This document shows, piece by piece, positions 36,007 through 64,000 of a stretch of DNA of 64,000 nucleotides. The position numbers were made by a program, and so were the translations under genes. This DNA comes from Elusimicrobiota bacterium. GTDB taxonomy: Bacteria; Elusimicrobiota; JBDRON01. The notes under the pieces were generated by a model, which saw nothing but the letters and a program-made list of their open reading frames with translations, searched no databases and had not been told where the DNA came from. The stretch spans positions 19,377-83,376 of the forward strand of contig JBDRON010000056.1 in assembly GCA_043810025.1 (NCBI GenBank), given 5' to 3'. Within the stretch, counting starts at the first letter, position 1; every line of letters starts with the position of its first letter.

Positions 36007-36023
36007 AGCAGGTAAATTAAAAA

Positions 36024-37459: not shown

Positions 37460-37560
37460 TGATGTTATGTGTGTTCCCCTTTTAGAAAGGGGGATAAGGG
37501 GGATTTAGAAAATAATTACTAAATCTCCCCTAACCCCTCTTTATAAAAGAGGGGAATAAG
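37460..37560 (+). repeat. Family A triple-hairpin element, copy A4
   Basis: TGATGTTATGTGTGTT-CCCCTTTTAGAAAGGGGG-ATAAGGGGGATTTAGAAAATAATTACTAAATCTCCCCTAA-CCCCTCTTTATAAAAGAGGGG-AATAAG; between btuC and btuD. Confidence 0.7.
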
Positions 37561-37578
37561 AAATGAGGTGCCTAACTA

Positions 37579-38385: not shown

Positions 38386-38927
38386 TCTTAATCCGGCACG
38401 GTGAAACTGCTTGGAGCAGTCAGAAGAGGTATTGCGGGATTAGCGATGTGGAGCTGAACGAAAACGGCCGAAAACAGGCTCTCCTGCTGGCCGGGAAATT
38501 GAGCGGAGAAAGAGTGGACAAAATTTATTCCAGCGACCGGAAAAGAACCTGGCAGTTTGCCCGGATCGTTTTTCCGGGTTTGCCGGTGGAAAAGGTTCCG
38601 GAGCTGCAGGAAATAAATTTTGGAATTTTTGAAGGGTTTACTTATCGGCAGATTTTGAAAACTCATCCGGAGATTTATCGAGCCTGGCTGGCTAACCCGG
38701 TCGATACCCAAATTCCGGGAGGAGAATCCCTAAGTAATCTGGCCGAAAGGGTCAAAAAAATATTAGAAAAAATTTTGGCGGATAACCGGAACAAAACAAT
38801 TGCCGTGGTTACCCATAGCGGCCCGATTCGGATAATTTTGGGCGGGATCAGGAAATTGGAGTTAAAAAATATCTGGCAAATCAAACCTGATTTAGCCAGC
38901 GTCAATATTGTGGAGTTCAATGGGTAA
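38370..38927 (+). CDS. cobC: alpha-ribazole phosphatase / histidine phosphatase family (CobC)
   Basis: LILIRHGETAWS catalytic RHG motif; sits within the cob salvage operon. Confidence 0.75.
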   Translation: MPTKLILIRHGETAWSSQKRYCGISDVELNENGRKQALLLAGKLSGERVDKIYSSDRKRTWQFARIVFPGLPVEKVPELQEINFGIFEGFTYRQILKTHPEIYRAWLANPVDTQIPGGESLSNLAERVKKILEKILADNRNKTIAVVTHSGPIRIILGGIRKLELKNIWQIKPDLASVNIVEFNG

Positions 38928-39438
38928 AATTATATTTATTCTTGGTGGAGCAAGAAGCGGGAAAAGTTCCCACTCGCTTAAATTAGCCGGAGCGGTCCGA
39001 GGCCGGGCCGCCTTTGTGGCCACCTGCGCGCCGCTGGATAAAGAAATGGAAAAGCGGATCGAAAAGCATAAAAGTTCGCGGCCGCTTAACTGGCAGACTT
39101 TTGAAGAGCGGCGAAATTTACCGGCGCTGATGGCGAAGATTGGATCAAAGTTCCGGGTGATTATTGTTGATTGTCTAACGCTTTATCTGACTAATCTTCT
39201 CTTGGCCGGTCTGGATGAGGCGGCAATCGAGCGGAATATCGGCCAATTGCTCCAAACGGTTAAAGCGGTAAAAAGTAAAACGTTGATTGTTTCCAACGAA
39301 GTGGGGTTGGGGATTGTTCCCCAGAACCGGTTAGCCAGAAAGTTCCGGGATTTAGCCGGCAGGATAAACCAGATTGTTGCCGAAAAATCCGACGAAGTTA
39401 TTTTTATGGTCTCCGGTCTGCCAATTAAAGTTAAATAA
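38908..39438 (+). CDS. cobU: bifunctional adenosylcobinamide kinase / adenosylcobinamide-phosphate guanylyltransferase (CobU/CobP)
   Basis: P-loop IIFILGGARSGKSSHSL; about 176 aa. Confidence 0.88.
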   Translation: MWSSMGKIIFILGGARSGKSSHSLKLAGAVRGRAAFVATCAPLDKEMEKRIEKHKSSRPLNWQTFEERRNLPALMAKIGSKFRVIIVDCLTLYLTNLLLAGLDEAAIERNIGQLLQTVKAVKSKTLIVSNEVGLGIVPQNRLARKFRDLAGRINQIVAEKSDEVIFMVSGLPIKVK

Positions 39439-39457
39439 TTTTTCAAAAGGAGAAAAC

Positions 39458-40513
39458 ATGGAAAAAGTGGAAGAAATTGTAGTGAAAATTGCCGGGCTTG
39501 ATTCGGATCTGCTAAGGAGGACACAAGAAAGGTTGGATAATCTTACCAAGCCGCCGGGCAGTTTGGGAAGGCTGGAAGAGTTGGCCAGGATGATCGTCGG
39601 AATGACCGGAAAAGCTAACCCCTCTTTGGACAACAAGGTTATTTTTACCCTTGCTGCTGATCATGGAGCGGCGGAGGACGGGGTCAGCGCTTATCCCCGG
39701 GAAGTGACGGCTCAGATGGTTTATAATTTTTTAAATGGCGGGGCGGCGATCAATGTTTTGGCTAAGCATGCGGGGGCGAGGGTGGTGGTCGTGGATCTGG
39801 GAGTGGCCGTCGATTTAAAACCTCATCCGGAGTTAATGATTAAAAAAATAAATTATGGGACAAAAAACATGCGCCAGGGGCCGGCGATGAGCCGTGGGGA
39901 AGCGATAAAATCCATCGAAGCCGGGAAGGAAATTTTTCAGGTGGCGGCGGAGAAAGGGATTGATATCGCCGGGACCGGAGATATGGGCATTGGGAATACG
40001 ACGGCCAGCGCGGCTTTAACGGCTGTTTTTACCGGCCGGGCTGTGGAGGATGTTACCGGCCGCGGTACCGGCCTTGAGGATCAGGCTTTAAAAAACAAAG
40101 TTGCCTTTATTGCTGAGGCGATAGGCTTAAACAAGCCGGATAAAAACGATCCGTTGGATGTGCTGGCTAAACTGGGCGGGTTTGAGATCGGGGGGTTGGC
40201 CGGAATAATTTTGGCGGCTGCTTCCCGAAGGGTGCCGGTGGTGATTGATGGTTTTATTTCCGGGACGGCGGCTTTGCTGGCTTATCAGCTAGAGCCAAAA
40301 GTTAAGGATTATCTGATCGCTTCGCATTGTTCGGTAGAAAAGGGGCATAAAATAATTCTTGATTTTATTGGTTTAAAACCGTTTTTGGATTTGAATTTAA
40401 GGTTAGGCGAAGGAACGGGAGCGGCCTTGGGCATCAGTCTGGCCGAAGCTAGTATAAAAATATTAACCCAAATGGCCACCTTTGCCAAAGCCGGAGTTTC
40501 CACAAAAAAGTAG
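39458..40513 (+). CDS. cobT: nicotinate-nucleotide--dimethylbenzimidazole phosphoribosyltransferase
   Basis: CobT family (KPPGSLGRLEELA..., GIGNTTASAAL, ...ALGISLAEASIKIL); AAGGAG RBS before ATG 39458 (track start 39374 is an over-extension). Confidence 0.88.
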   Translation: MEKVEEIVVKIAGLDSDLLRRTQERLDNLTKPPGSLGRLEELARMIVGMTGKANPSLDNKVIFTLAADHGAAEDGVSAYPREVTAQMVYNFLNGGAAINVLAKHAGARVVVVDLGVAVDLKPHPELMIKKINYGTKNMRQGPAMSRGEAIKSIEAGKEIFQVAAEKGIDIAGTGDMGIGNTTASAALTAVFTGRAVEDVTGRGTGLEDQALKNKVAFIAEAIGLNKPDKNDPLDVLAKLGGFEIGGLAGIILAAASRRVPVVIDGFISGTAALLAYQLEPKVKDYLIASHCSVEKGHKIILDFIGLKPFLDLNLRLGEGTGAALGISLAEASIKILTQMATFAKAGVSTKK

Positions 40514-40516
40514 TAG

Positions 40517-40590
40517 TTGTGGGTCATGGGTCTTGAGCTCAAAAGACTCGATTCCTTTAAAATCACAACCCATGACACACAACTCAGAAC
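40517..40590. repeat. Family B palindrome, copy B5
   Basis: TTGTGGGTCATGGGTCTTGAGCTCAAAAGACTCGATTCCTTTAAAATCACAACCCATGACACACAACTCAGAAC; between cobT and cobS. Confidence 0.7.
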
Positions 40591-40616
40591 CATTACTTTA
40601 GGGAGCTTGTTTTATC

Positions 40617-41360
40617 TTGAAAGAGTTTTTATTGGCTTTACAGTTTTTAACGATCATACCGCTGGGATCTACGGAGGTGTTCGAGGAAAAAAAACTTCTT
40701 CGGGCGCCGGCGTTCTTTCCGCTCGTCGGACTGCTGATCGGTTTAATTTTAGCCGGAATGAATAATATTCTCTCATGGCTGTCCGTAGAACAGTTTTTGT
40801 CTAATGCTGTTCTACTGGTCTTGCTGATTGTTTTAACCGGAGGACTGCATCTGGATGGATTGGCCGATACTTTTGACGCTTTAGGCAGTGGAAAAGATCG
40901 AGCTCGCCGGCTGGAAATTATGCGCGATTCCCATATCGGGACGATGGGTGTTTTAAGCCTGATCAGTCTTCTTTTGCTGAAACTGGCGCTTCTCTGTTCT
41001 TTGGTCCCGGTCTTAACGAATAATTCTTTAATTCTGATGTGTTTATTAAGCCGGTATGCTTTAATTTTGGCGATGTTTTTGTTCCCTTACGCCCGCCAGG
41101 AAGGTAAAGCAAAACTTTTTATGCAGGGAATGAATTATAAGGTTTTTTTTCTGGGAAGCGGGCTAAGCTTAGCTTTCTCCTTAATTTTTTTTCAACTCCA
41201 GGGGGTGATATTTTTTATTTTAGTAACCATCTTTGTTTTTTTAGCCGGTAAATATGCGGCGAATAAGATTGGCGGAATTACCGGAGATGTTTTAGGGGCG
41301 ATCAGCGAATTGACCGAAATTTTTGTCCTCTGCAATGTTTTAATTTTGAGTAAATTTTAA
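40617..41360 (+). CDS. cobS: adenosylcobinamide-GDP ribazoletransferase (cobalamin synthase)
   Basis: Polytopic membrane protein starting LLALQFLTIIPL (CobS signature); TTG start. Confidence 0.85.
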   Translation: MKEFLLALQFLTIIPLGSTEVFEEKKLLRAPAFFPLVGLLIGLILAGMNNILSWLSVEQFLSNAVLLVLLIVLTGGLHLDGLADTFDALGSGKDRARRLEIMRDSHIGTMGVLSLISLLLLKLALLCSLVPVLTNNSLILMCLLSRYALILAMFLFPYARQEGKAKLFMQGMNYKVFFLGSGLSLAFSLIFFQLQGVIFFILVTIFVFLAGKYAANKIGGITGDVLGAISELTEIFVLCNVLILSKF

Positions 41361-41383
41361 TGGATGCTAATTTTCTTGTGATA

Positions 41384-41432
41384 GTGATGTGATTTGTGTT
41401 CCCTCTTTATAAAAGAGGGAATGAAAAAAATC
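41384..41432 (+). repeat. internally deleted Family A element (head + hairpin 3 only), copy A8
   Basis: GTGATGTGATTTGTGTT-CCCTCTTTATAAAAGAGGG-AATGAAAAAAATCGC. Confidence 0.5.
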
Positions 41433-41472
41433 GCGCTAAGCTAAATAAACCAAATCAGAAGGAGTAACTAAA

Positions 41473-43347
41473 ATGTTTAAGAGAAAAAAAGATGTTTTGC
41501 TGGTTATTTTTTTATTTTTTGTCTGGGGGGGGAGAACTTTTTTATATTCAAAAGATGAACCTTTGATCGTGGTGAGCGCGACCCTTGCGCCGTTAAGTTA
41601 TCCCAATGCCCCTACTAATGTCAATGTGATCAGCCGGGAAGAGATTGAGCAAACCAACGCGCAAAATGTGGGCGAGGCGATTAATTATTTGCCGGGTATC
41701 GAAGTCAGCCGGCATGGCAGTCTGGGAGCCTTAAGTCAGGTGCGGTTAAGAGGTTTTTTTGCCGACCAGGTGCTGGTGTTAATTGATAATCGGCCGGTGG
41801 GTGGTATATCGCTGGGTGTTGTCGATCTCAGTTTAATTCCCCTGGATAATGTGGAACGGATCGAAGTGGTTCGCGGGCCGGGATCCAGTGTTTACGGGGC
41901 GAACGCTCTAGGCGGTGTGGTCAATATTATCACCAAAACACCGAAGAATGAAATTCCTTATACCGAATATACTGTTCAACAGGGTAGTTTTTCGACCTAC
42001 CTTAATCGCCTTAGTTTTGATGTCCGCAAAGAGAAACTAGGGATACTTCTTTCCGCTAGTGAGAATAATTCTCAGGGTTTCCGGGATAACGGCGGATTTC
42101 AGTCGGCTAACTATTTCGGTAGTTTTGAGTACCGGCTCAATGAGAATAATCAATTGCTGTTTAGTGGCGGTTACGCTAAAAAAAGAACGGATGTTCCCGG
42201 ACCAAATCCTTTACGTTTGAACGAATTCGACGGACATAAGGAACGGTCTGCTTCCACCCCCAACACTTTTCAGAAGGACAAAGATGTTTATGGCCAGCTG
42301 GTTTATAAACTGCTGGTCGGAGAAAAAAATATGTTTCAAGGAAGAGTTTATTCTAATGTAAAAGAAAATTTTTATAACCAGCCCGACGACTGGGCGATAA
42401 AAAATTTAGCCGACGAGAAAAGTAACGGCGCTGAACTTCAGTGGGACACAGTCTATGGATTTGTTTTAGGGACAAACCTGCATACCGATTACTATGTTTT
42501 GACCGATCAACTTGCCGACAGCGAACAAATAAATAAGAAAGCCGGCAACTTCGCCTTTTTCCTGGAAGATAACTTGCATTTGAAAAAGTTAACGGTTGTT
42601 CCTGGTGTTCGATATGATCGGCATAAGACTTTTGGCGCTGAGGTTAATCCGCGTCTGTCGGCGATCTATCAAGCTAATGAACAAATAAAATTTTCTACTA
42701 ATTTTGGCCGCGCCTATCGGGTACCGACTTTCAATGATTTGTATTACCCATCCGGTGGTAATCCGGATTTAAAACCGGAGATTTCTTTGGGCGGGGATTG
42801 TGGAACCGAATATAAAATCAGGGGAAGTCTGACGGCCCGGCTTACTTATTTTCATTCCCGGGTCAAAGAGATGATTCGTTGGTCCGAAGATGCTAATACC
42901 GGAGTCTGGCATCCGGTTAATAACAAAGTTATTAATCAAGGTCTGGAGTTGGAACTGGAGAACAATTTTTTTTCTAATTTGAGTGGTAAACTTGGTTATT
43001 CTTTCCTTCACAACCGCAAATACGATTTTAAGGCCAGCCGCTATGTAGAGTGGTTTTATACGCCGGCGCATCGGCTTACTTATCAAATCGGTTACCAGCC
43101 CTCTGCGGCCTGGAATATTAATACTGGCTTGGAGTATGTCGATAAACAGTATGCTTCTGACGATAAAACGGGAACAAAACTGCCTTCCTATACTTTATGG
43201 GGGTTGCGCGTTTCCCGAAAAATTATTTCCTGGGATTTCTTCGCCGGTGTAGACAATCTAACCAATAAAAGATATATTATCCGCCAGGGCTATCCTCTGC
43301 CCGGCCGCACTTATTATGCCGGCGCCACCGCCAGATTTTCGAATTGA
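41473..43347 (+). CDS. btuB: TonB-dependent outer-membrane receptor (BtuB-like vitamin B12 transporter)
   Basis: Signal peptide, TonB-box-like DEPLIVVSAT, plug and 22-strand barrel-sized body; located after cobS. Confidence 0.78.
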   Translation: MFKRKKDVLLVIFLFFVWGGRTFLYSKDEPLIVVSATLAPLSYPNAPTNVNVISREEIEQTNAQNVGEAINYLPGIEVSRHGSLGALSQVRLRGFFADQVLVLIDNRPVGGISLGVVDLSLIPLDNVERIEVVRGPGSSVYGANALGGVVNIITKTPKNEIPYTEYTVQQGSFSTYLNRLSFDVRKEKLGILLSASENNSQGFRDNGGFQSANYFGSFEYRLNENNQLLFSGGYAKKRTDVPGPNPLRLNEFDGHKERSASTPNTFQKDKDVYGQLVYKLLVGEKNMFQGRVYSNVKENFYNQPDDWAIKNLADEKSNGAELQWDTVYGFVLGTNLHTDYYVLTDQLADSEQINKKAGNFAFFLEDNLHLKKLTVVPGVRYDRHKTFGAEVNPRLSAIYQANEQIKFSTNFGRAYRVPTFNDLYYPSGGNPDLKPEISLGGDCGTEYKIRGSLTARLTYFHSRVKEMIRWSEDANTGVWHPVNNKVINQGLELELENNFFSNLSGKLGYSFLHNRKYDFKASRYVEWFYTPAHRLTYQIGYQPSAAWNINTGLEYVDKQYASDDKTGTKLPSYTLWGLRVSRKIISWDFFAGVDNLTNKRYIIRQGYPLPGRTYYAGATARFSN

Positions 43348-52957: not shown

Positions 52958-54694
52958 TTGAAAAATATTAAGAAAACGGTTATTAATATCTTAGGCAGCA
53001 GCGGCCGGGGCTGTTCACCGTGCAATCCGGCATCTTCGGCGAACATGCCCAATAAACGGGCTAAACGAAGGGAGGTTAACTTGAAACCAAACATTGTCAA
53101 AATTTTTTTTCTTGGATTTATCAGCATAATCATCTTGATAACGGCTATCGCCGTTTTTGGCTGGTATGCAGCGAAAAAAATCGGTTATATCAAGGACAGG
53201 GTAATTGCCGGTTACCGGTTGGAAAAAGAAATTCTGCTCTGCCGGAGAGAAGAAAAAAACATTATAATTAGGGGTGTATCGCCGGAAGCTATTGCCCAAT
53301 GGCGGAATTCTTATGTCCGGATTCAAGATCTTATTCCGGAGATGAAAGCTAAAAGATATATTGGTTTAGCGGAAAGCCGGACTTTGGAAAAAAATCTGCT
53401 TACTTATGGACAATTATTTTTGACGTTTGTCAAACAAATCCAAGGGAAAAAGGCGTTGAATACGGAAATATTGAATTCTTACGATGAACAATTGAAAAAA
53501 ACCGGCCGGTTAATCTTGGAGACCGGTGAGCAAATTATTCAGCAATCCAAAACCCGGGCGAGAAAAATTACTCGAAGCGCTTTCAGTTTGTTAATTATTA
53601 TTTCTCTTTTGGGGATTGGTTTTTCGCTAATTTTGGGTTACAGGATTATCAAAACTACTCGGCAATCATTAAAAGAAAACGAAGATCTGGCTAAGCAATT
53701 AAAGCAAAATAATTTAGAACTAACCTTGGGTTTATCTGAGCTGAAACAGACGCAAAAAGAATTGGAAGAAATTAGTCTGGAAATGGCGCTGGAGTTGTCG
53801 GAGATTTTTAATATCCTAAGACGGGTGGCTGGAGGGGATTTAACCGCCGCCCCTTTAAGGGAATCCAAAAACGAACTGTTGACCAAGCTAAGAGTTGAAC
53901 TTAATCAAACGATCGGCAAGATTAAGCAGCAGAGGGAAGAGCTAAAAAGTTATACGGAGAAGCTGAAAGAAAGCAATACAAATTTGGAAGATTTTGCTTA
54001 TGTTGCCTCCCACGATTTGCAGGAACCTTTACGCAAGATAAAAAGTTTTGGCGACCTTTTAATGCTTAAATATAAAGATAACATAGATAGTCAGGGAGGC
54101 GATTATATTCAGCGGATGCAGGGTGCGGCTATTCGGATGCAGAAGCTGATTGAAGACTTGTTAAGCTACTCGCGGGTAACCCAAAAAGGACAACCGTTTA
54201 TGGCTGTTGATCTGAACATTGTAGTGAAGGAAGCGCTTTCTGATCTGGAAATCCGGCTCCGGGAGACTAATGGCCGGGTGGAAGCCGGGGATTTACCGGT
54301 AGTTAATGGAGATTCCCTGCAGCTTCGCCGGCTTTTTCAAAACCTGCTTGGCAACGCTTTGAAATTCCACAAAAAAGATCAGCCGCCGGTAATCAAGGTC
54401 TACAAAAACGATGTGCAGTTGGCCGGCGCTGATTCTTCAGTTAAACGGTTTTGCCTGATTGTTGTAGAAGACAATGGGATCGGGTTTGACGAACAATACA
54501 CGAACAAAATATTCGAAATTTTTCAGCGCCTGCACGGACGCGATGAATACGAGGGAACCGGGGTGGGGCTGGCAATTTGCAAAAAAATAGTTGAGTGGCA
54601 CGGTGGCGCAATAACCGCCCAAAGCCAGCCCGGGGAAGGAACAAAATTTATCGTTACTTTGCCGATGAAACAGATGGCGGTGGATGCGGGTTGA
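52958..54694 (+). CDS. sensor histidine kinase (membrane-anchored, coiled-coil/HAMP-like linker, HisKA + HATPase_c)
   Basis: TM segments; H-box FAYVASHDLQEPLRKI; N, G1, G2 boxes (LGNALKFH, DNGIGFD, GTGVGLAICKKIVEWHGG). Confidence 0.8.
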   Translation: MKNIKKTVINILGSSGRGCSPCNPASSANMPNKRAKRREVNLKPNIVKIFFLGFISIIILITAIAVFGWYAAKKIGYIKDRVIAGYRLEKEILLCRREEKNIIIRGVSPEAIAQWRNSYVRIQDLIPEMKAKRYIGLAESRTLEKNLLTYGQLFLTFVKQIQGKKALNTEILNSYDEQLKKTGRLILETGEQIIQQSKTRARKITRSAFSLLIIISLLGIGFSLILGYRIIKTTRQSLKENEDLAKQLKQNNLELTLGLSELKQTQKELEEISLEMALELSEIFNILRRVAGGDLTAAPLRESKNELLTKLRVELNQTIGKIKQQREELKSYTEKLKESNTNLEDFAYVASHDLQEPLRKIKSFGDLLMLKYKDNIDSQGGDYIQRMQGAAIRMQKLIEDLLSYSRVTQKGQPFMAVDLNIVVKEALSDLEIRLRETNGRVEAGDLPVVNGDSLQLRRLFQNLLGNALKFHKKDQPPVIKVYKNDVQLAGADSSVKRFCLIVVEDNGIGFDEQYTNKIFEIFQRLHGRDEYEGTGVGLAICKKIVEWHGGAITAQSQPGEGTKFIVTLPMKQMAVDAG

Positions 54695-54760: not shown

Positions 54761-54985
54761 ATGGCGGTAGAAGTTCTGGATACCTGCGGTTTGAAATGTC
54801 CTCAACCGGTTTTAAAGCTTGCGGTTAAATCTCCGGATATGAAGACGGGAGATGTTTTGGAGATTGTTGGGGATTGCGAAACTATGGAACGAGATGTCCG
54901 GCTGTGGTGCCGGCGGCTGGGCAAAATTTTTCTTTCTACCCGTGATGAAGGACAAAACCGGAAACGGCTCCGAATCCAGTTTTGA
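54761..54985 (+). CDS. TusA-like sulfurtransferase
   Basis: 74 aa with LDTCGLKCPQPVLKL (CPxP motif). Confidence 0.7.
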   Translation: MAVEVLDTCGLKCPQPVLKLAVKSPDMKTGDVLEIVGDCETMERDVRLWCRRLGKIFLSTRDEGQNRKRLRIQF

Positions 54986-55071
54986 TGCCTGCCTCGCGGA
55001 TATCGGAAATTGAAAGTAGTAGCGGTCCTTATATTGTCGAAAAAAATATTTCCCTAAGGCGGTGCGTCTAG

Positions 55072-55449
55072 ATGAATGATCAGCGAATAAAAGTTCTTCT
55101 GGTTGATGATGATGAAGATTATTGGGTGATCACCCGTTCTTTATTAGCCGAGTCTAAAGATGTCCATTATGAGCTGGATTGGATCGCGGCCTACGACGCC
55201 GCTTTGGAAACAATTAAGTTGAATAAACACGATATTTATCTGCTTGATTATCGGATCGGATCGCATACCGGGCTGGATCTTCTTTCTATGGCGCTCGAGA
55301 ATGGTTGTAAAGCCCCGTTCATTATGCTAACCGGCCAGGGGGACCGGAAAACGGATGTAAAAGCGATGCAGATGGGGGCCGCCGATTATTTAAGTAAAGA
55401 CAAGATTGATGCGGCCTTACTGGATCGTTCCGTCCGCTATGCTATTTAG
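55072..55449 (+). CDS. response regulator receiver domain protein (CheY-like); ends at an in-frame TAG immediately before the PAS domain of the next gene
   Basis: REC motifs (VLLVDDDED, DLLDYRIG, FIMLTGQGDR, K at ...YLSKD); stop TAG at 55447-49. Confidence 0.8.
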   Translation: MNDQRIKVLLVDDDEDYWVITRSLLAESKDVHYELDWIAAYDAALETIKLNKHDIYLLDYRIGSHTGLDLLSMALENGCKAPFIMLTGQGDRKTDVKAMQMGAADYLSKDKIDAALLDRSVRYAI

Positions 55450-55533
55450 CGGAAAAAAAATGAAGATTACCTGCGTAATTCCGCCCAAGAGTGGCAAACC
55501 ACTTTTGACGCGATCAGCGACGGGGTAGTAGTA

Positions 55534-56979
55534 GTGGATGTTAAGGGGGAAATTCTGCGCTGCAATCGGGCAATGACCGAAATAATCGGAAAGCCGGCGG
55601 GAGAAATAATCCGGCGAAAATGCCATGAAATTATTCCCGGCGGTTCCGAGGTGGAAAGATGTCTTTTCTCAAGGGCGAAAGCTGCCGGTAAAGGGGAAAC
55701 CGGCGAGCTGGAATTTGGGGGAAAAAAATATCAATATTTTATTGATCTAATCCGGAATATTCAAGGCAATATTGTCGGCGGTGTCGGGAAAATAATGGAT
55801 ATTACCGAACGCAGGAAACTGGAGGAACGGTTATTGCAGTCGCAAAGGCTGGAAGCAATCGGTCAGTTAGCCGGCGGTATTGCCCACGATTTTAACAATC
55901 TGATGACTTCGGTGCTGGGTTACAGCTCTCTGATCTTAAACGGGTTGGCCGAAAATGATGTTTTAAGGGCAGACCTTGAGGAAATCCATAAAGCCGGTAA
56001 ACGGGCTTCTTTGCTTACCCAGCAGCTTCTGGCTTTCAGCCGCAAACAGATGCTGAAAGTTCAGCTAACGGATTTAAACAGCCTGGTTAGGGACATGGTC
56101 ATAATGCTCCAGAGGCTGATCGGGGAAGATATTAAACTATTTCTGGAGTTGGAACCAAAAATTGAAAAAATAAATCTTGATCCGGGGCAGGTGGAACAAG
56201 TAATTATGAATTTAGTGCTTAATGCCCGCGATGCGATGCCCGGTGGAGGTAAAATTACTTTCTCTACGGAGAATGTAAATATTAGCGGGAAGGAAAACAA
56301 AATTTTACCCGGCGCCCGGCCGGGACGGTTCGTCCGCTTTTCGGTTCAAGATAACGGAATCGGAATGAACGAAGAAATTCTTAAGCGTATTTTCGAACCG
56401 TTCTTTACCACCAAAGAGAAAAATAAAGGCACCGGACTGGGGCTTTCTACGGCTTACGGAATTATTGCCCAGCACGAGGGTTGGATTAATGTGGAGAGCG
56501 AGCCGAAGAAAGGAGCAATATTTAAGGTTTACCTGCCTGTGGTCAATACCGCGATAGAAAAGGAAATTATTGAAGAGGCTGCGGTTATTTTAAATGAACA
56601 CAAGGGTAAGGGGGAACGGATACTTCTGGTTGAAGATGAAGAAAATGTGCGCAAATTTGTTTGCCGGCTTTTAGCAGATAACGGCTATGATGTTTGTGAT
56701 GCCGTTGATGCCCGGCAGGCCCTGGAAATTTTTAAGCGGGATACAGGAAATTTTCAGCTTGTTTTTAGCGATGTGGTTTTGCCGGATAAAAATGGCCTGC
56801 AGTTGGCGGAGGAATTATTATTGCTTAAGCCCGATTTAGCCGTAGTTTTGGTCAGCGGTTATCTGGACGAAAAATCCCAGTTGGCGGCCGTGCAGGAAAA
56901 AGGTCTGGTCCTTCTTCAAAAACCTTATCCGGCGTCTTTATTGTTCAAGACCTTTAAGGAACAGATAAAACCGAAATGA
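55534..56979 (+). CDS. hybrid sensor histidine kinase (PAS + HisKA + HATPase_c + C-terminal REC); reading frame is open upstream to 55450
   Basis: H-box [18 protein letters not shown]-binding boxes, C-terminal REC ([10 protein letters not shown]...[12 protein letters not shown]). The annotated GTG start 55534 sits inside the PAS S1 box (...[19 protein letters not shown]). Confidence 0.8.
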
Positions 56980-57069: not shown

Positions 57070-59007
57070 ATGGTAGAAAAGGTTGGGGTGTTCATTTGTG
57101 ATTGCGGCACAAATATTTCTGAGAGTATCGAAACGGCAGAATTAGCCAAGTTTGCCGAAAAGCACGATGATGTAGTAGAAGTAAAAATTCATCGCTTGTG
57201 GTGTTCAGATGAAGGAAAAGAGGAACTGAAGCGCATAATTATGGAGAAAAAACTTTCCCGGGTAGTAATGGCTGCTTGTTCTCCGAAACAACACGAGTTA
57301 ACCTTCCAAAAAGTCCTAAGTTCAGCCGGATTGAATCCTTATCTCCTGCAGATGGTTAATCTTCGCGAGCAAATTGCCTGGGTTACTAAAGATAAGGCGG
57401 CGGCTTTGAAAAAAGCGGTTTCCCAATTAAATTCGGCGCTGAAAAGGGTGAGATTGCACAAACCTTTAGAAAAGAAAGAAATTGAATGTAAAACCGATCT
57501 ATTGGTAATCGGAGCCGGTATTGCCGGTATGTCGGCGGCTTTAACGGCTGTTCAGAAAAACAGGAAGGTCTATCTGGTGGAAAAACAACCTTGGATTGGC
57601 GGGAAGGTAGCGGCCTATGAAGATGTTTTCCCAAATTTAGATTGCGCTCCTTGTATGCTGGAACCAAAAGAAGACGATGTTCTTCATCATCAACAAATTA
57701 CCCTGCTAACCAATAGTGAAGTGGAAAATGTAAAAGGATTTTTTGGCAATTTTGAAGTGGAAGTTAAAAACAAAGCCCGGTTTATCGATGCCGATAAATG
57801 CATCGGCTGCGGGGCCTGTTTTGAGGTTTGTCCGGTTAAAGTGAAAAATAAGTTTGACGGTAACCTTTCGGAAAGGAGAGCTGTTTATACCGCGTTTGCC
57901 GGGGCGCTTCCTAATTTACCGGTAATCGATCGGGAAAACTGTCTGCGTTTTATCAAAGGTGAAGATTGCCGGAAATGTCAGGATGCTTGTCCGTGCGGCG
58001 CGGTTGATTACGAACAAAAGGATAAAACTGTTTCTGTGCAAGTCGGAGCGCTAGTGGTGGCCACAGGTTTTGAGCTTATGGATGTCAGCCGGCTGGAAAA
58101 TTTTTCTCCTCACCTGCCAAATGTTGTTAACGGTTATCAGTTTGAGCGGTTAACCAGTTCTACCGGACCAACCGGAGGAAAAATTTTAACTGCCGGCAAT
58201 CAACCGCCTAATTCCATTGCCTTTATCCACTGTGCAGGCAGCCGGGATAAAAATTACCGGGACTATTGCAGCGGTGTTTGCTGCGCTTATAGCCTTAAGC
58301 TGGCCCATCTGGCCAGAAAAAAACTCGGTAATATCAAAACCTACGAAATTTACTCCGACTGGTGTTTGCCCGGTAAAGGTTATCAGGAGTTTTATAATAA
58401 ATTTGCCTCGGAGGGAACCTGCTACCTGCGGGTGAATAATCCCAACGAAATCAAAATCGGCGCTAGCGGGAAAGGATTATTAGTTAATTACGGCGGCGGT
58501 TCCTTAACGGTGGATATGGTGGTCCTGGCGCCGGCAATCGTGCCTTCGTCCGGGGTGGAGGATCTGGCAATTTTACTGGGATTAGCCAGGGATAAAAATG
58601 GGTTTTACTTGGCTGAACACGAAAAAATCTCTCCGGCCTCGACGACTAACCGGGGAATTTATATTGCCGGATGCGCCGCCGGACCAAAAGATATCGCTCA
58701 ATCTGTCTTACAGGCGCAGGCCGGAGCGGGGATGGTTTTGAATATCCTTGTTCCCGGAGAAAAACTTGAGCTGGAAGCAGCTGTCTCCACCATTGATGAG
58801 AAACGATGCGGGGCCTGCCTGGTTTGTGTTCCCCTTTGTCCCTATCAAGCGATAAGTTTTGACGCAAAAGGAAAAACGGCGGTAATAAACGATGTTTTGT
58901 GTAGAGGGTGCGGGGTGTGTGCCGCCTCTTGTCCGTCCGGTGCGGCAGAAAATAAACATTTTACCGCCCGGCAAATATTCGCCGAGATCGAAGGAGTTAT
59001 GGAATGA
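57070..59007 (+). CDS. hdrA: heterodisulfide reductase subunit A-like flavoprotein (HdrA; FAD + multiple [4Fe-4S])
   Basis: FAD fold DLLVIGAGIAGMSAAL; four ferredoxin-type Cys clusters (CIGCGACFEVCP, CRKCQDACPCG, CGACLVCVPLCP, CRGCGVCAASCP); followed by mvhD. Confidence 0.85.
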   Translation: MVEKVGVFICDCGTNISESIETAELAKFAEKHDDVVEVKIHRLWCSDEGKEELKRIIMEKKLSRVVMAACSPKQHELTFQKVLSSAGLNPYLLQMVNLREQIAWVTKDKAAALKKAVSQLNSALKRVRLHKPLEKKEIECKTDLLVIGAGIAGMSAALTAVQKNRKVYLVEKQPWIGGKVAAYEDVFPNLDCAPCMLEPKEDDVLHHQQITLLTNSEVENVKGFFGNFEVEVKNKARFIDADKCIGCGACFEVCPVKVKNKFDGNLSERRAVYTAFAGALPNLPVIDRENCLRFIKGEDCRKCQDACPCGAVDYEQKDKTVSVQVGALVVATGFELMDVSRLENFSPHLPNVVNGYQFERLTSSTGPTGGKILTAGNQPPNSIAFIHCAGSRDKNYRDYCSGVCCAYSLKLAHLARKKLGNIKTYEIYSDWCLPGKGYQEFYNKFASEGTCYLRVNNPNEIKIGASGKGLLVNYGGGSLTVDMVVLAPAIVPSSGVEDLAILLGLARDKNGFYLAEHEKISPASTTNRGIYIAGCAAGPKDIAQSVLQAQAGAGMVLNILVPGEKLELEAAVSTIDEKRCGACLVCVPLCPYQAISFDAKGKTAVINDVLCRGCGVCAASCPSGAAENKHFTARQIFAEIEGVME

Positions 59008-59426
59008 ACAAAAATGATTTCGAACCGAAAATTGTCGGATTTTTTTGTAACTGGTGCAGTTATGCCGGAGCCGACCAGTCAGGTAATCAGCATAAAGAGA
59101 TACCGGCAAACTTGCGGACTATTCGGGTAATGTGTTCCGGCCGGGTGGAGCCGCAGTTCGTGCTCAAGGCTTTTAAAGAGGGAGCTGATGGAGTAATGGT
59201 GATGGGTTGTCATCCCGGCGACTGTCATTATAAGGAAGGTAATTACAAAATGCTGCGCCGGAAAAAATTGTTGGACCAGATGCTCAAGCAGTTTGGCATT
59301 GAGAAAGAACGTTTCCGGCTTGACTGGGTTTCGGCCGGTGAAGGCGAAAAATTCTCTCAATTGGTCACGGAAATGGCGGATACTTTAAAGAAACTGGGAC
59401 CGTTAAGAGTTAATAGAGCAGCTTGA
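59004..59426 (+). CDS. mvhD: methyl-viologen-reducing hydrogenase delta subunit (MvhD)
   Basis: IVGFFCNWCSYAGADQSG...IRVMCSGRVEPQFVLKAFKEGADGVMVMGCHPGDCHY (MvhD Cys pattern). Confidence 0.85.
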   Translation: MNKNDFEPKIVGFFCNWCSYAGADQSGNQHKEIPANLRTIRVMCSGRVEPQFVLKAFKEGADGVMVMGCHPGDCHYKEGNYKMLRRKKLLDQMLKQFGIEKERFRLDWVSAGEGEKFSQLVTEMADTLKKLGPLRVNRAA

Positions 59427-59460
59427 ATATCTTGCGTTCATTTTCCAAAGGAGGATGTAG

Positions 59461-60408
59461 ATGGGTAAACTTAAACTGGCTTTATATTGGGGGGCGTCCT
59501 GCGGCGGATGCGAAATCGCGGCGCTGGATATAAATGAAAAAATTTTGGCTGTGGCGGCTGTGGCCGACATTTTGCTTTGGCCGCTGGTTGTTGACGGCAA
59601 ATATAAAGATATTGAGGCGCTGCCGGATAAAACAATTGATGTCTGTTTATTTAACGGCGGGATACGTAATTCTGAAGCGGAACATAGAGCTAAAATGCTG
59701 CGAGTTAAATCCAAGACGCTGGTGGCTTTTGGCGCTTGCGCCGGTCTGGGAGGGGTGCCGGGCTTAGCTAACCAGTTTAGCCGGGAAGAAATTTTAGAAC
59801 GGGTCTATCAAACTACTCCTTCCACAGTAAACCCTGAAAAGGTTCGTCCCCAAACTAAAACTAAAATGCCGGAAGGCGAATTGGAAATACCGGAATTTTT
59901 TCCGCGGGTCCTGCCTTTAGATGAAGTGGTTAGCGTTGATTATTATCTTCCGGGATGTCCACCGACTGCCGAATGGGTGTTAAAAGCCATCGATGCTATC
60001 GTCAAGAATCAATGGCCGGCGCCCGGTTCAGTGATCGGATTGGAAAAAGCCGTCTGTGATGAATGTCCCTTGGAGCGGAAAAGTGAACGAAGTATAAAGA
60101 AATTTTATCGGCCGCAAGAAATTATTCCCGAACCGAAAAAATGTCTGCTGGAACAGGGGATAATTTGCTGCGGGCCGGCCACGCGAAGCGGGTGCAAAGC
60201 TCGTTGTTTGGAAGTGAATATTCCTTGTAGAGGCTGTTACGGACCACCGCCGGGAGTAGTTGACCAGGGGGCTAAAATGCTAAGCGCTGTAGCTTCGCTG
60301 ATTGATTCCGATCAAGAGGAGGAAATTGATCAAATAATCTCCGGAATCAAAGACCCTTTAGGAATATTTTATCAGTTCTCTTTGCCTAAATCTCTGTATA
60401 AGAAATAA
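59461..60408 (+). CDS. mvhG: NiFe hydrogenase small subunit, group 3c (MvhG-like)
   Basis: N-terminal proximal-cluster motif WGASCGGCEIAALD, further Cys clusters (GACAGLGG, CxxC...C); between mvhD and the large subunit. Confidence 0.8.
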   Translation: MGKLKLALYWGASCGGCEIAALDINEKILAVAAVADILLWPLVVDGKYKDIEALPDKTIDVCLFNGGIRNSEAEHRAKMLRVKSKTLVAFGACAGLGGVPGLANQFSREEILERVYQTTPSTVNPEKVRPQTKTKMPEGELEIPEFFPRVLPLDEVVSVDYYLPGCPPTAEWVLKAIDAIVKNQWPAPGSVIGLEKAVCDECPLERKSERSIKKFYRPQEIIPEPKKCLLEQGIICCGPATRSGCKARCLEVNIPCRGCYGPPPGVVDQGAKMLSAVASLIDSDQEEEIDQIISGIKDPLGIFYQFSLPKSLYKK

Positions 60409-60535
60409 GAATTCCCTTCCCCTTAAGGCTGGGTTTCCCCCTTTTTAAAGGGGGATCAAGGGGGATTTTACGACGATAAAAATCCTCCCTAACCCTCCTT
60501 TACAAAGGAGGGAATAACTAAAAAAACCGCGTTTT
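60408..60535 (+). repeat. Family A triple-hairpin element, copy A7 (compensatory stem-3 variant)
   Basis: ...TTT-CCCCCTTTTTAAAGGGGG-ATCAAGGGGGATTTTACGACGATAAAAATCCTCCCTAA-CCCTCCTTTACAAAGGAGGG-AATAACT; stem 3 reads CCCTCCTTT/AAAGGAGGG here versus CCCCTCTTT/AAAGAGGGG elsewhere. Confidence 0.7.
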
Positions 60536-60583
60536 TAGTAATATTATTTTTGACATTACCGCTAATTAGAAAGGGAGGTTAGA

Positions 60584-62047
60584 ATGAGGAAAATTACTAT
60601 CGATCCGATCACCCGGCTCGAAGGTCACGGTAAAATTGAGATATTTTTGAACGATGCAGGGGATGTGGAGAAGGCTTATTTACAGATCCCTGAACTGCGC
60701 GGTTTCGAAAAGTTTTGCGAAGGCCGGCCGGTCGAAGAATTGCCCAGAATTACAGCGAAGATTTGCGGGGTTTGTCCGGAAGCCCATCATCTTGCTTCCA
60801 GTAAGGCTGTGGATGCCGTTTACAAAGTTGATCCGCCGCCGGCGGCAAAAAAACTGCGGGAGTTGTTTTATATGGCCCATATCATGCATTCCCATATCGC
60901 TCATTTTTATGCCTTGGCTGCTCCCGATTTTGTTGTGGGTCCCGATGCTTTACCGGCGGAGAGAAATATTTTAGGGGTAATTGCTAAAGTCGGCGTGGAT
61001 ATCGGCAAAGAGGTAATCAAACACCGGGCTTATGCGCAGGACATTCAGACAACGATCGGGGGACGAGCCGCTTATCCGGTTTGTGGTTTGCCCGGCGGAT
61101 GCTCCAAAGCAATCAACGAAGACGAACGAAAGGAAATTGAAATTAAAGCTAAATCCTGTATCGAGTTTGCCAGATTTTCTTTAAAAATTTTTGAAGATAC
61201 GGTTTTAAAAAACAAAACTTATCTGGATATAATATTGTCTAAGGATCTTTATTATTTGAAAACTTATTATATGGGTCTGGTGGATAAAAATAACCTGGTC
61301 AATTTTTACGACGGCGCTATCCGGGTGGTTGATCCCGAAGGAAAAGAGTTTGCCAAATTTAAACCGGCCGATTATTTAGAACACATCGCCGAACATGTCG
61401 AGCCTTGGACTTATTTGAAATTTCCTTACCTGAAGAAGGTGGGCTGGAAAGGGCTTGTTGACGGAAAAGATTCCGGGGTATTTCGGGTTGCTCCGCTGGC
61501 TCGCTTGAATGCGGCTGAGGGGATGTCTACCCCGCTGGCTCAGACCGAGTACGAAAAAATGTATAAAACTCTTGGCGGGAAGCCGGTTCATCATACTTTG
61601 GCTTTTCATTGGGCCAGGTTGGTGGAACTGCTTTATGCCGCGGAACGGATGCTGGAGTTGAGTCAGGATAAAGATATTACTTCACCGGATGTCCGCGTTA
61701 TACCTACAGCTGTGCCGGATGAAGGCGTGGGGGTTGTCGAAGCCCCGCGCGGCACTTTGTTTCACCATTACAAAACTGATGCTGACGGAATGGTTAAGGC
61801 CGTTAATTTGATTGTAGCAACCGTCAATAACCATGCGGCGATGTGTTTGTCGGTAACCAAAGTTTCTCAAGGATTGATTAAAAAAGGGCAGGTTAACGAC
61901 GGTTTGCTGAATATGGTGGAGATGGCTTTTCGGGCTTATGATCCCTGTATGTCCTGCGCTACCCATTCCTTGCCCGGCAAAATGCCGCTGATCGTTAACC
62001 TGAAAAATCATCAAGGTGAAGTCATAAAGACGCTTCGGCGGGATTAA
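60584..62047 (+). CDS. mvhA: NiFe hydrogenase large subunit, group 3c (MvhA-like)
   Basis: N-terminal RLEGHGKI and Ni-binding CGVCPEAH; C-terminal DPCMSCATH motif. Confidence 0.88.
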
Positions 62048-62049
62048 CA

Positions 62050-62586
62050 GTGGATTTTGGATTGGCGATTGCGGAATGCGGAATGAAAAACAATAAAACT
62101 TTAATTCTGGGTCTTGGCAACCCGATTTTGTCCGATGATGCGGCGGGAATTATCGTTGGCAGAAAAGTCTATGAGTTTTTGCTGAATTCAAGATCAGTGT
62201 TTGCTGTGGAGTTTAGAGAAGCATCTTATGCCGGTTGGCGGTTAATTGATTTTCTTGGCGGATACAGCCGGGCAGTAATTATTGACGCTGTGCTTGATGA
62301 CAGTATGGCTGTGGGGGAAGTTTGTGAAATTAACAGATCGGCTATCTGTTCAATCCACTTGCAGTCTTCTCACGGAATGGGTTTGGCGGAAGCTTTGGAA
62401 TTAGCCGGGCAAAGCGGAATGCTGATGCCCAGGCAAATTTATATTTATGGGATCGGGATAAATAAGGCCGACAAATTTGGCGAGTCGCTTTCACCGGAAA
62501 TCGAACAAAAATTACCGTCAATTGTCCAAGAGATTGCAGAGGCTGTTAAAGACCGGTATCGAGAGTCGGATATTTGTTATAAATAA
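62050..62586 (+). CDS. hydrogenase maturation endopeptidase (HycI/HoxW/FrhD family)
   Basis: LILGLGNPILSDDAAGIIVG and ...DAV...HGMGLAEAL motifs; directly after the large subunit. Confidence 0.8.
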   Translation: MDFGLAIAECGMKNNKTLILGLGNPILSDDAAGIIVGRKVYEFLLNSRSVFAVEFREASYAGWRLIDFLGGYSRAVIIDAVLDDSMAVGEVCEINRSAICSIHLQSSHGMGLAEALELAGQSGMLMPRQIYIYGIGINKADKFGESLSPEIEQKLPSIVQEIAEAVKDRYRESDICYK

Positions 62587-62647: not shown

Positions 62648-63280
62648 TTATTCATAATCCTCCAGCTGATAGCTGGCGGCGATATTTTCTAACTGTTCAA
62701 GAATATGCTGTGTTTCGGTTTCCACTTTATTGAGTATTACTGTTTCTTCCTGACTAATTTTGCCGCTAAGTTTTTGCTGCAGCAAATTTAATCCGTTATT
62801 GGAGGCGGTCAAAGATGATTTTAATTCATCACCAAGAAATTGGCACAAGCTTTTATTTGTATCTTCCGCCTTTTTTAATTTGCGCAAACTTTCCTGCAAA
62901 TAATCATTGAGTTTGCGGATTCTCAGCAAACTTTTTACTCTGGTTAGCAGCTCTAATTGATTAAATGGTTTAGTGAGGAAATCGTCGGCTTTGTGCTGGA
63001 GACCTTTAATCTTATCGTCTAATTGGGAGAGAGCGGTCAGAAATATTATCGGAATAAACTGTGTAGCCGGTTCGCTTTTTAGAATTGAGCAGACCTGATA
63101 ACCGCTAAGTTCGGGCATCATTATATCCAAAATAATCAGATCGATATCCGCTTCTTTGGCTTTTTTCAATACTTCTTTGCCGTTTCTGCAAACGATAACT
63201 TCGAAATCTTCCGACTCCAAAATAATTTTCAAAGCATCGGTAATTGACAGCTCGTCATCCGCAACCAAAATCTTTCCCAT
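62648..63280 (-). CDS. response regulator (REC domain + C-terminal coiled-coil; no DNA-binding output domain)
   Basis: MGKILVADDELS..., DLIILDIMMPELSG, ...FLTALSQLDDKIKG; AAGGAG RBS before ATG 63280. The track N-terminal extension to 63403 runs through a Family B repeat and is rejected. Confidence 0.8.
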   Translation of the reverse strand: MGKILVADDELSITDALKIILESEDFEVIVCRNGKEVLKKAKEADIDLIILDIMMPELSGYQVCSILKSEPATQFIPIIFLTALSQLDDKIKGLQHKADDFLTKPFNQLELLTRVKSLLRIRKLNDYLQESLRKLKKAEDTNKSLCQFLGDELKSSLTASNNGLNLLQQKLSGKISQEETVILNKVETETQHILEQLENIAASYQLEDYE

Positions 63281-63310
63281 TTTTTTTCTCCTTTTACTAT
63301 TATTCGATAT

Positions 63311-63408
63311 AGTCGTAGTCTTGAGCCATGGGTCTTGAGTCTTGAGTCTTGAGTTTAAAAGAATCGATTCCTTTAAACTCAGAACCCATGACACATAACG
63401 CATGACCC
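63311..63408. repeat. Family B palindrome, copy B6
   Basis: GTCGTAGTCTTGAGCCATGGGTCTTGAGTCTTGAGTCTTGAGTTTAAAAGAATCGATTCCTTTAAACTCAGAACCCATGACACATAACGCATGACC; between the HK stop and the RR start within a minus-strand operon. Confidence 0.7.
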
Positions 63409-63413
63409 GTTAG

Positions 63414-64000
63414 TTATTCCCTTGTTATCGGTAATTCAATAATAAATTGCGCTCCACCCGACGGATTGTTTTGAGCAAAAATATTACCGCCGTGTTCTTT
63501 GATTATCCCGTAGCTGACACTTAAGCCCAAACCGGTATTTTTTTCTTTGGTGGTGAAAAAAGGATTAAATATTTTTGGCAGAATTTCTTTAGGAATACCT
63601 TCTCCGGTGTCAGAAAATTCAATAATGATCCGTCCTTCCTTGATGCCGGTTTTTACGCTAATCTGTTTGGCCGGCTTATTGCAGGCCGACAGCGCCTGGT
63701 GCGCGTTGTTTAAGAGATTAAAAAAAGCCTGTTGTAGTTTATTTTCGTCAACCATTAGATAGATATCTCGATCATATTGACGGATTAACTCAATATTGGA
63801 CAATTTCAATTCGTATTCTCTTATTTTAAGAACTGTTTCCAGGCATTTGTTGATACTGCACAACCTTTTTTCTGATTTGTAACTGCGGGTAAAAGTGACA
63901 AGGTTTTCAATAATTTTTTTACAACGCAAGGCATTCTCTTTTATTTGCAGCAATATCTTGTCTCGTTCTTCAACGGGGGCTCGTTCGATTATTTGTGAAA
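63414..64000 (-). CDS. sensor histidine kinase, C-terminal part (HATPase_c); 5' end lies beyond the window
   Basis: N-box LLNNAHQAL, G-boxes DTGEGIP, GLGLSVSYGIIKEHGG; frame still open at position 64000. Confidence 0.75.
   Translation of the reverse strand, partial: SQIIERAPVEERDKILLQIKENALRCKKIIENLVTFTRSYKSEKRLCSINKCLETVLKIREYELKLSNIELIRQYDRDIYLMVDENKLQQAFFNLLNNAHQALSACNKPAKQISVKTGIKEGRIIIEFSDTGEGIPKEILPKIFNPFFTTKEKNTGLGLSVSYGIIKEHGGNIFAQNNPSGGAQFIIELPITRE

Follow-up and report, generated by a model that had tools for sequence, protein, structure and literature searches.

A single in-frame TAG codon divides a fused REC-PAS-HisKA-HATPase_c-REC hybrid kinase gene in an Elusimicrobiota genome

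Within a 64,000-nucleotide stretch of DNA from an Elusimicrobiota metagenome-assembled genome (MAG), hereafter the window, we found that one in-frame TAG codon separates a free receiver domain from the remainder of what would otherwise be a single hybrid histidine kinase. Whether real or artefactual, the interruption is very probably a point lesion in a single fused gene. The explanation we favor, with a probability of roughly 0.55, is that an ancestral single REC-PAS-HisKA-HATPase_c-REC gene acquired one recent and real nonsense substitution for which no function has evolved. The initial annotation had offered nonsense mutation, sequencing error and stop codon read-through as candidate explanations; we retain that list and order it with the nonsense mutation first.

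The TAG lies at positions 55447-55449 of the + strand (as do all features described here) in the context CGC TAT GCT ATT TAG CGG AAA AAA AAT GAA, constitutes codon 126 of the read-through frame, and is followed by a C (TAG-C). The open reading frame (ORF) that it terminates (55072-55449, TAG included) specifies a 125-amino acid receiver whose C-terminal end is ...LLDRSVRYAI, and the same frame remains open from 55450 to a TGA at 56977-56979, a span of 510 codons that specifies PAS, HisKA, HATPase_c and C-terminal receiver (REC) domains. That the receiver ends in RYAI-TAG and that its frame then simply runs on, as originally reported, can be read directly in the sequence. The complete read-through translation comprises 635 codons and contains no second lesion. 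The 28 codons that separate the TAG from the first canonical start codon (55450-55533) encode a linker/N-cap helix together with the beginning of PAS strand A-beta, and they include a run of eight A residues (55453-55460). Bypass of the TAG by a frameshift at this A8 run can be rejected, as the upstream and downstream frames are identical and the alignment with homologues is free of gaps. The AlphaFold model places the TAG within a 3-residue loop (residues 125-127) between the alpha5 helix of the receiver (114-124) and the N-cap helix of the PAS domain (128-147). No other pair of adjacent, same-frame ORFs in the window represents a parallel case: these pairs are either ordinary neighbors in which an ATG occurs 0-6 nt past the stop or genes that are not contiguous.

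Each of the domains expected of a hybrid kinase could be identified on the two sides of the TAG. The N-terminal receiver (55072-55449) is a complete (beta-alpha)5 fold in the AlphaFold model, with elements running from E5-11 to H114-124 and block-mean pLDDT values of 81-94 for residues 11-130. Its conserved residues, D13/D14, the phospho-acceptor D59, T87 and K109, all occupy invariant or near-invariant columns in the alignment of homologues (D13, D59 and K109 being invariant). Downstream of the TAG are a PAS domain (55489-55815; residues 140-248), matched by the Pfam profiles PAS, PAS_9 and PAS_4 from profile positions 1-2 with E-values of 2e-10 to 1e-7; a HisKA (DHp) domain (55861-56049; residues 264-326; Pfam E-value 1.5e-9) in which the H-box histidine H272, within the motif HDFNN, is invariant; and an HATPase_c domain (56179-56541; residues 370-490; Pfam E-value 1e-23) with intact N, G1, F and G2 boxes, for which the invariant columns are N384, D427/G429/G431, FEPFFTTK (441-448) and G453/G455/G457. 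The C-terminal receiver (56620-56949; residues 517-626) has its phospho-acceptor at D567, and D522, D567 and K617 are invariant; the Pfam profile Response_reg matches the read-through translation in two stretches (E-value 1.2e-33). Thus, the protein has a HisKA domain with its H-box, the HATPase_c boxes, and two receivers each with acidic pocket, Asp and Lys, and departs from a canonical hybrid kinase in that the TAG parts the first receiver from the remainder of what should be one uninterrupted ORF. Judged from the sequence, all of the invariant catalytic residues are present in both halves and both halves are undamaged.

Homologues of the read-through translation indicate that the two halves belong to one protein. 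We identified 26 full-length homologues (631-715 aa), each covering at least 97% of the query, and all 26 are single fused proteins that align across the junction without a gap. Both flanks of the TAG match a single protein in each full-length homologue, which is more than chance would give, and the original proposal that an in-frame TAG cuts a single REC-PAS-HisKA-HATPase-REC gene in the REC-PAS linker holds. The homologue consensus at the junction is RYAxER, and the column occupied by the TAG contains E in 15 homologues, K in three, Q in three, R in two, A in two and G in one. In total, 21 of the 26 homologues have E, K or Q here, and the codons GAG, AAG and CAG, if the G-ending codon is used, are each one base from TAG, such that a premature stop is reachable by a single substitution. 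Codon 126 was thus most likely GAG, AAG or CAG before the change; the specific GAG to TAG change first suggested is plausible, E being the majority residue. The comparison with orthologues called for at the outset revealed fused proteins throughout: apart from the MAG's own protein, no split homologue occurs among the 120 best matches, and a tblastn search of the junction against 81 fetched loci returned 10 junction-like matches, spread over 9 loci, and none of them has a stop at the junction.

The closest homologue is a fused 631-aa kinase from Elusimicrobia bacterium RIFOXYA2_FULL_50_26 and RIFOXYB2_FULL_50_12 (OGS18431.1 and OGS24183.1; cluster P0002), which has the same domain order, aligns over 99% of the read-through translation at 50% identity, and shares the catalytic residues and a gap-free junction, reading RYAIGRKKAENAARQSAKEWQATFDAIGDG where the window reads RYAI-stop-RKKNEDYLRNSAQEWQTTFDAISDG. 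It differs in being an uninterrupted ORF, in having G at the TAG column (E in most other homologues), and in gene context: P0002 lies behind a CHASE8-HAMP-PAS kinase and a free receiver, whereas the gene in the window is preceded by a membrane kinase and TusA and has an HdrA-MvhDGA hydrogenase cluster downstream. Identity to P0002 is 64% over the 28 codons after the TAG, compared with 49% over the whole protein. This conservation, together with the intact catalytic residues, suggests that the lesion is recent. No orthologue above 50% identity was found, the best match in a search of 5.8 billion proteins being 50% identical and the best genomic locus 49%; the latter has a different architecture (TM-PAS-PAS-kinase). 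The nearest relatives are fused, but none is closer than 50% identity in the collections searched, too distant to date the split, a point against the favored explanation.

We asked how the kinase half might be translated if it were a separate gene. GenBank annotates the locus as two normal coding sequences without a pseudogene mark: MFH1259278.1, a 125-aa "response regulator", and MFH1259279.1, a 502-aa kinase (55471-56979; PAS-HisKA-HATPase_c-REC). The initial annotation took GTG 55534 as the annotated start of the kinase, but the deposited sequence begins at CTG 55471, 22 nt downstream of the TAG, as fixed by the N-terminus of the deposited protein (P0001; MRNSAQEW, encoded by CTG CGT AAT TCC...), and a product initiated there (residue 134) would keep the whole PAS core. 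There is no ATG, GTG or TTG in the 84 nt after the TAG; the first canonical start is the GTG at 55534-55536 (codon 29 after the TAG, residue 155). Initiation at this GTG was correctly expected to truncate the PAS domain, with loss of ~17 PAS profile positions according to Pfam and, according to AlphaFold, loss of the N-cap helix and a cut through strand A-beta (151-156); its position is nevertheless in the first PAS strand and not, as had been stated, in the middle of the beta-sheet. Ribosome-binding signals also distinguish the two halves. The receiver start is preceded by a Shine-Dalgarno-like AAGGCGG (55056-55062) with a predicted anti-Shine-Dalgarno duplex of -10.2 kcal/mol, a score equalled by just 1.35% of random positions in the window. 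The corresponding score for CTG 55471 is -3.3 kcal/mol, the background median, and that for GTG 55534 is -6.4 kcal/mol, a value that 12% of random positions also reach. The kinase half lacks a canonical start accompanied by a good Shine-Dalgarno site, and the proper ribosome-binding site and start that would have argued against an interrupted gene are not found.

Several explanations other than a real and unselected mutation deserve consideration. It is possible, though distinctly less probable, that the TAG reflects an assembly, consensus or sequencing error, or a minority allele picked by the assembler, and that the true gene is uninterrupted (with, for example, GAG) and specifies a 635-aa hybrid kinase. 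In favor of this reading, the halves are wholly intact and the junction is gap-free against fused homologues, and the locus is present in a single MAG contig: exact look-ups found no second contig with either deposited protein, both proteins form singleton clusters, the protein collection holds no other copy, and a 35-nt pattern across the TAG, in which the codon itself was given as NNN, had no match among GTDB representative genomes or among JGI metagenomes. Because there is no independent public copy of the locus, a real mutation and a consensus error cannot be told apart. Moreover, lpxA, a normally essential gene, carries a +1 frameshift in the same window caused by a one-base insertion within a G5A6 homopolymer run at about 21813-21826. 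This insertion is typical of sequencing errors and looks like an assembly error, and the contig is hence not error-free; together with the presence of the locus in one assembly only, it counts against a real mutation. The lesion in the kinase gene, however, is a substitution and not a homopolymer indel, the adjoining A8 run is in frame, and substitutions are less frequent than indels among consensus errors. Only ~4% of possible substitutions in the gene (242 of 5715) create a stop, and of the nonsense routes ~0.4% fall in the inter-domain loop and ~3% within residues 121-133, so that a random error would have a probability of ~0.4% of landing in the loop. Remaining scanned ORFs in the window have no frameshift or premature stop, although btuF and btuC appear internally shortened and a CheR-like ORF looks like a fragment, which suggests that the genome does carry decayed genes. 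The position of the TAG, at the cleanest possible cut point, also counts against an unselected mutation; it exceeds what such a hit would be expected to give and hints that the fission is tolerated or useful. Somewhat less likely again than an artefact is that the fission has been selected, with the free 125-aa receiver serving as a single-domain response regulator or phosphate sink and the kinase made by termination-reinitiation at CTG 55471 or GTG 55534. This idea gains from a cut exactly on a domain boundary, at a position improbable for a random hit, which leaves a complete receiver and (from the CTG) a complete PAS-kinase-receiver, each with all of its catalytic residues; the separate free receiver beside the kinase at the locus of the closest homologue also indicates that free receivers work with kinases of this type. 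Set against it are the lack of a canonical start within 84 nt, candidate starts whose Shine-Dalgarno scores do not stand out from background, the fact that bacteria initiate very poorly at CTG, the loss of strand A-beta from a GTG-initiated product, and the lack of split homologues among the 120 best matches. Furthermore, the linker codons, which would go untranslated after a split, are still highly conserved, as fits a recent event and not an established split.

Least probable by a wide measure is programmed recoding of the TAG, whether through pyrrolysine, a suppressor tRNA or leaky termination, that would yield free receiver and full-length kinase in a set ratio. The downstream frame is wholly open and conserved, and a C at position +4 is a documented weak termination context in bacteria (PMC5289835), but TAG-C is a common context that counts for little as evidence. 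Global recoding of TAG can be rejected within the window: TAG terminates 9 of the 84 long ORFs, and for nuoA, nuoB, a lipid A acyltransferase and an acylphosphatase it coincides with the end of the Pfam profile, which bears out the earlier view, exemplified by nuoB, that TAG is a genuine stop elsewhere. The window of 64 kb contains no tRNA gene, and no pyrrolysine-system protein was matched among the ~60 window ORFs scanned. The stop is not accompanied by significant RNA structure (z = -0.84 for the fold of 55440-55560 relative to shuffles) or by an Rfam match, and the titles and abstract openings of the literature surveyed tie no Elusimicrobia to pyrrolysine use. The site resembles the pyrrolysine TAG codons of methylamine methyltransferase genes in having an in-frame TAG and an open, conserved downstream frame. 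Those codons, however, are conserved TAGs of specific enzyme families and require pylTSBCD, whereas here the TAG falls in a variable linker column of a kinase that contains six different sense residues (E, K, Q, R, A and G) and never a stop among the 26 homologues, in a window without a pyl gene. No evidence supports recoding. It is similarly very improbable that a leaky TAG-C, or a suppressor or pyrrolysine tRNA encoded elsewhere in the MAG, yields free receiver in abundance and full-length kinase in a small, tunable amount; were a leaky or recoded reading true, translation would set the stoichiometry of the phosphorelay.

Among known systems, the locus also resembles ordinary nonsense pseudogenes and nascent gene fissions, with which it shares one in-frame stop, no other lesion and no evolved downstream start. 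It differs from them in that the stop falls exactly on a domain boundary and both pieces are, in the predicted structure, complete modules. Further lesions and relaxed constraint downstream are also lacking: the 510 codons are open and the invariant residues kept. Given this lack of decay, either the lesion is very recent or the gene is not dead. Many of the homologues carry an automated, family-level JGI/KEGG label of CckA, and the window protein does resemble CckA in its HisKA/HATPase_c core, its C-terminal receiver and its HDFNN, FEPFFTTK and GTGLGLS motifs. We do not claim orthology to alphaproteobacterial CckA, from which the window protein differs in having an N-terminal receiver, one PAS domain and no transmembrane segment, and in belonging to Elusimicrobiota.

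Under the favored explanation of a recent nonsense substitution, translation would start at ATG 55072 and terminate at the TAG, releasing a complete 125-aa free receiver, and the kinase half would then be made poorly if at all. The kinase might still arise through occasional re-initiation, at CTG 55471 or GTG 55534, or through a basal level of near-cognate read-through at the weak TAG-C. The locus would accordingly be a young pseudogene or a nascent gene fission and probably neither an evolved two-gene system nor a recoding site.

An ordinary recent nonsense mutation is thus the most likely origin of the split, an assembly error is less likely, and a new coding mechanism is not indicated; the case leaves knowledge of the genetic code and of two-component signaling unchanged. 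Its value lies mainly in annotation, since what GenBank presents as two ordinary genes, one of them started at a CTG, appears to be one interrupted hybrid kinase gene that deserves a flag as a possible pseudogene. If the mutation is real, the locus would represent a gene fission caught very early, at a clean domain boundary, and would illustrate in a modest way how stand-alone receivers and orphan kinases may originate. As the gene lies just upstream of the HdrA-MvhDGA hydrogenase cluster, its loss or rewiring could, judging from position only, influence how hydrogen and redox metabolism is regulated in this uncultured Elusimicrobiota lineage.

An in-frame TAG at 55447-55449 (bases 55438-55464: CGC TAT GCT ATT TAG CGG AAA AAA AAT) interrupts a plus-strand gene for a hybrid histidine kinase. 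The first open frame comprises 125 codons from ATG 55072 to the stop (55072-55449) and is preceded by a Shine-Dalgarno (SD)-like AAGGCGG (55056-55062); past the TAG, the same frame stays open for 510 codons, up to a TGA at 56977-56979. In the 635-residue translation read across the stop, Pfam identifies an N-terminal receiver (Response_reg), a PAS domain (residues 140-248, the match beginning at position 1-2 of the profile), HisKA (264-326), HATPase_c (370-490) and, at the C-terminal end, another Response_reg (517-626). The initial annotation, in which the stop separates REC from PAS-HisKA-HATPase_c-REC, is thus exact with regard to sequence, open frames and domains.

Relatives of this gene encode it in one piece. 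Among the best 120 protein matches there was no kinase-half-only protein except the MAG's own, and the next best match, P0002 (a 631-residue protein of Elusimicrobia RIFOXY MAGs; OGS18431.1 / OGS24183.1), aligns at 50% identity to 99% of the read-through translation. The 26 homologues with at least 97% query coverage are each one protein, and their alignment is free of gaps at the junction; on this comparison, relatives are fused and not split. P0002 reads ...LLERSIRYAIGRKKAENAARQSAKEWQATFDAIGDGVLLVD opposite the read-through sequence of the window. At the position of the TAG, 15 homologues have E, three each have K and Q, two each have R and A, and one has G; in 21/26, the residue can be encoded by a codon that differs from TAG at a single base. 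The suggestion that an ancestral RYAIERKK was interrupted by a GAG to TAG change agrees with the family consensus, RYAxER. When the junction was compared by tblastn with the 81 fetched loci, 10 matches were obtained from 9 of them, and every match was free of a stop. From the gap-free single proteins and these stop-free matches, we infer that the fused gene is the ancestral and normal state.

The stop falls at a domain boundary in an AlphaFold2 model of the read-through protein (input alignment, 26 fused homologues; mean pLDDT 79.4, with block means of 88-90 across residues 111-160). The modeled receiver is a complete (beta-alpha)5 fold whose last helix spans 114-124, followed by a three-residue break (125-127), a helix (128-147) and the first PAS strands (151-156 and 160-164). 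The TAG is codon 126, exactly within the inter-domain loop, and the 125-residue product is predicted to be the whole receiver. Initiation at CTG 55471 (residue 134) would, in the model, retain the whole PAS core. GTG 55534, the first canonical start 3' of the TAG (codon 29 after the stop, residue 155), would give a product without the N-cap helix and with strand A-beta cut internally. The expected PAS truncation therefore stands, with ~17 Pfam profile positions missing from any product initiated there, while its place is corrected to the inside of this first strand.

In GenBank, the receiver half is the 125-aa 'response regulator' MFH1259278.1 and the kinase half the 502-aa 'ATP-binding protein' MFH1259279.1; each is a singleton cluster, and both lie on a single 84,305-bp contig of the Elusimicrobiota MAG. 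Since the 502-residue protein begins MRNSAQEW, its deposited start is CTG 55471, and not GTG 55534 as had been thought; the annotation pipeline apparently extended the coding sequence upstream toward homology. The CTG-started entry lacks an SD site, and the locus is not flagged as a pseudogene.

The kinase half has no recognizable start of its own. The organism relies on SD sites: many of its genes are preceded by AGGAGG- or GGGGG-like motifs, and the receiver ATG has a predicted anti-SD duplex energy of -10.2 kcal/mol, equalled by only 1.35% of random positions. No ATG, GTG or TTG occurs for 84 nt 3' of the TAG; CTG 55471 scores at background level (-3.3 kcal/mol), and the score of GTG 55534 (-6.4) is reached by 12% of random positions. 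Where other neighboring open frames of the window share a frame, an ATG follows the stop by 0-6 nt or the genes are non-contiguous. The 28 codons between TAG and GTG are 64% identical to P0002, versus 49% overall, and the alignment of 26 homologues shows all invariant residues kept in both receivers, the H-box and the N, G1, F and G2 boxes. Because no start has been acquired, nothing has decayed and a conserved stretch would go untranslated from the GTG, the lesion is either very young or not real, and the locus does not look, at the sequence level, like an established two-gene arrangement.

The proposed candidates of nonsense mutation, sequencing error and read-through were reasonable ones, of unequal weight. 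We favor a recent, real nonsense mutation without evolved function (probability roughly 0.55), and a real fission retained for its function seems quite improbable. Programmed recoding of the TAG is very improbable: TAG terminates 9 of 84 long open frames in the window and coincides with Pfam profile ends in nuoA, nuoB, a lipid A acyltransferase and an acylphosphatase; the window has no detected tRNA genes and, among ~60 open frames scanned, no pyrrolysine-system families; RNA 3' of the stop shows no gain in folding over shuffled controls (z = -0.84) and has no relevant Rfam match; and homologues vary at the aligned column, a linker position with no conserved special residue. Its sole support is the +4 base C, as bacterial termination is comparatively weak at a TAG followed by C (PMC5289835), which makes some basal read-through plausible, but this context is common.

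An artefact or minority allele is unlikely, yet the contig is evidently not error-free. Two overlapping open frames in different frames (21561-21875 and 21832-22368) jointly encode one LpxA, the frame switching at ~21813-21826 within AAAGGGGGAAAAAACG; this run contains a surplus G or A, whose removal restores a translation matching the LpxA family. As a homopolymer is affected, the gene is normally essential and the rest of the cluster is intact (lpxD / lpxC-fabZ / lpxI / lpxB / msbA), the lesion is probably an assembly or sequencing error. The TAG, however, is a substitution, whereas the lpxA lesion is a homopolymer indel. Moreover, of 5,715 possible substitutions in the kinase gene 242 create a stop, and of these ~0.4% fall in loop 125-127, ~3.3% within residues 121-133 and ~4.5% within 491-515, the other clean linker; random error would rarely hit a clean cut point, as a selection-filtered real mutation might, a weak argument made post hoc from a single case. 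Look-up of both deposited proteins found no other contig with either. A pattern search across the junction that allowed any bases at codon 126 had no match among GTDB representative genomes or in JGI metagenomes, and no relative above ~50% identity was among the protein matches or genomic loci searched.

Other genes of the window look genuinely decayed, namely btuF, btuC and a CheR fragment. In the B12 uptake cluster, a btuF-like gene (219 aa) and a btuC/FecCD-like gene (232 aa; both within 36024-37378) appear internally shortened relative to solved homologues, by ~65 and ~100 residues (the latter ~3 TM helices), possibly through real deletions (pseudogenes) or mis-assembly. Their cluster (35458-43347: cobO, btuF, btuC, btuD, cobC-like, cobU, cobT, cobS and a TonB-dependent receptor) follows a plus-strand AdoCbl riboswitch (35238-35379; RF01482, 53.1 bits, above gathering). 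A low-GC (37%) stretch, 32384-34543, contains an HTH-Fic protein (33599-34543) and a 187-residue minus-strand frame that matches only positions 98-173 of the 195 in the CheR methyltransferase profile and may be a gene fragment. A second low-GC island (23341-27498; 31-36% versus ~45% elsewhere), between lpxI and oxidoreductase/lpxB/msbA genes, is likely mobile DNA, with a Gp49-like (HigB-type) and HTH pair, an IS200-type Y1 transposase, an SNase/OB-fold protein and two further frames without Pfam matches. The complex I operon (4285-14517) runs nuoA, B, C, D, then H, I, J, K, L, M, N; the interval from nuoD (end 6837) to nuoH (start ~6977) lacks nuoE/F/G, and this is the 11-subunit form without the NADH-oxidising module.

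Directly upstream of the interrupted kinase, Pfam places a membrane HisKA/HATPase_c kinase (52958-54694) and tusA (54761-54985). Directly downstream is an Mvh/Hdr-type (group 3c-like) hydrogenase cluster (57070-62586) encoding an HdrA-like flavoprotein (645 aa), MvhD/FlpD, NiFe hydrogenase small (MvhG) and large (MvhA) subunits and a HycI-type maturation protease, a candidate regulatory target of the kinase by position. A minus-strand two-component pair (62648-63998) comprises a 251-residue response regulator (receiver, residues 45-157) and a preceding HATPase_c-containing kinase frame that extends past the window end.

On the general pattern of hybrid kinases, another kinase would phosphorylate the N-terminal receiver of an intact family member; this receiver is expected to signal through the helical linker and PAS to the DHp/CA core, and the C-terminal receiver to pass phosphate onward. 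With the TAG, initiation at ATG 55072 would yield a free receiver, and the kinase module would lose its covalent input; having no start of its own, it would probably be made only in traces, by CTG or GTG re-initiation or near-cognate read-through. The name CckA on homologues is automated, and we claim no orthology for the locus. It has every domain and motif of the common REC-PAS-HisKA-HATPase_c-REC hybrid kinase family, departs from it solely in lacking one uninterrupted open frame, and is an interrupted member of that family. Nonsense-interrupted genes and nascent fissions are well known from bacterial genomes and MAGs; this locus is another instance, and the practical result is an annotation flag.
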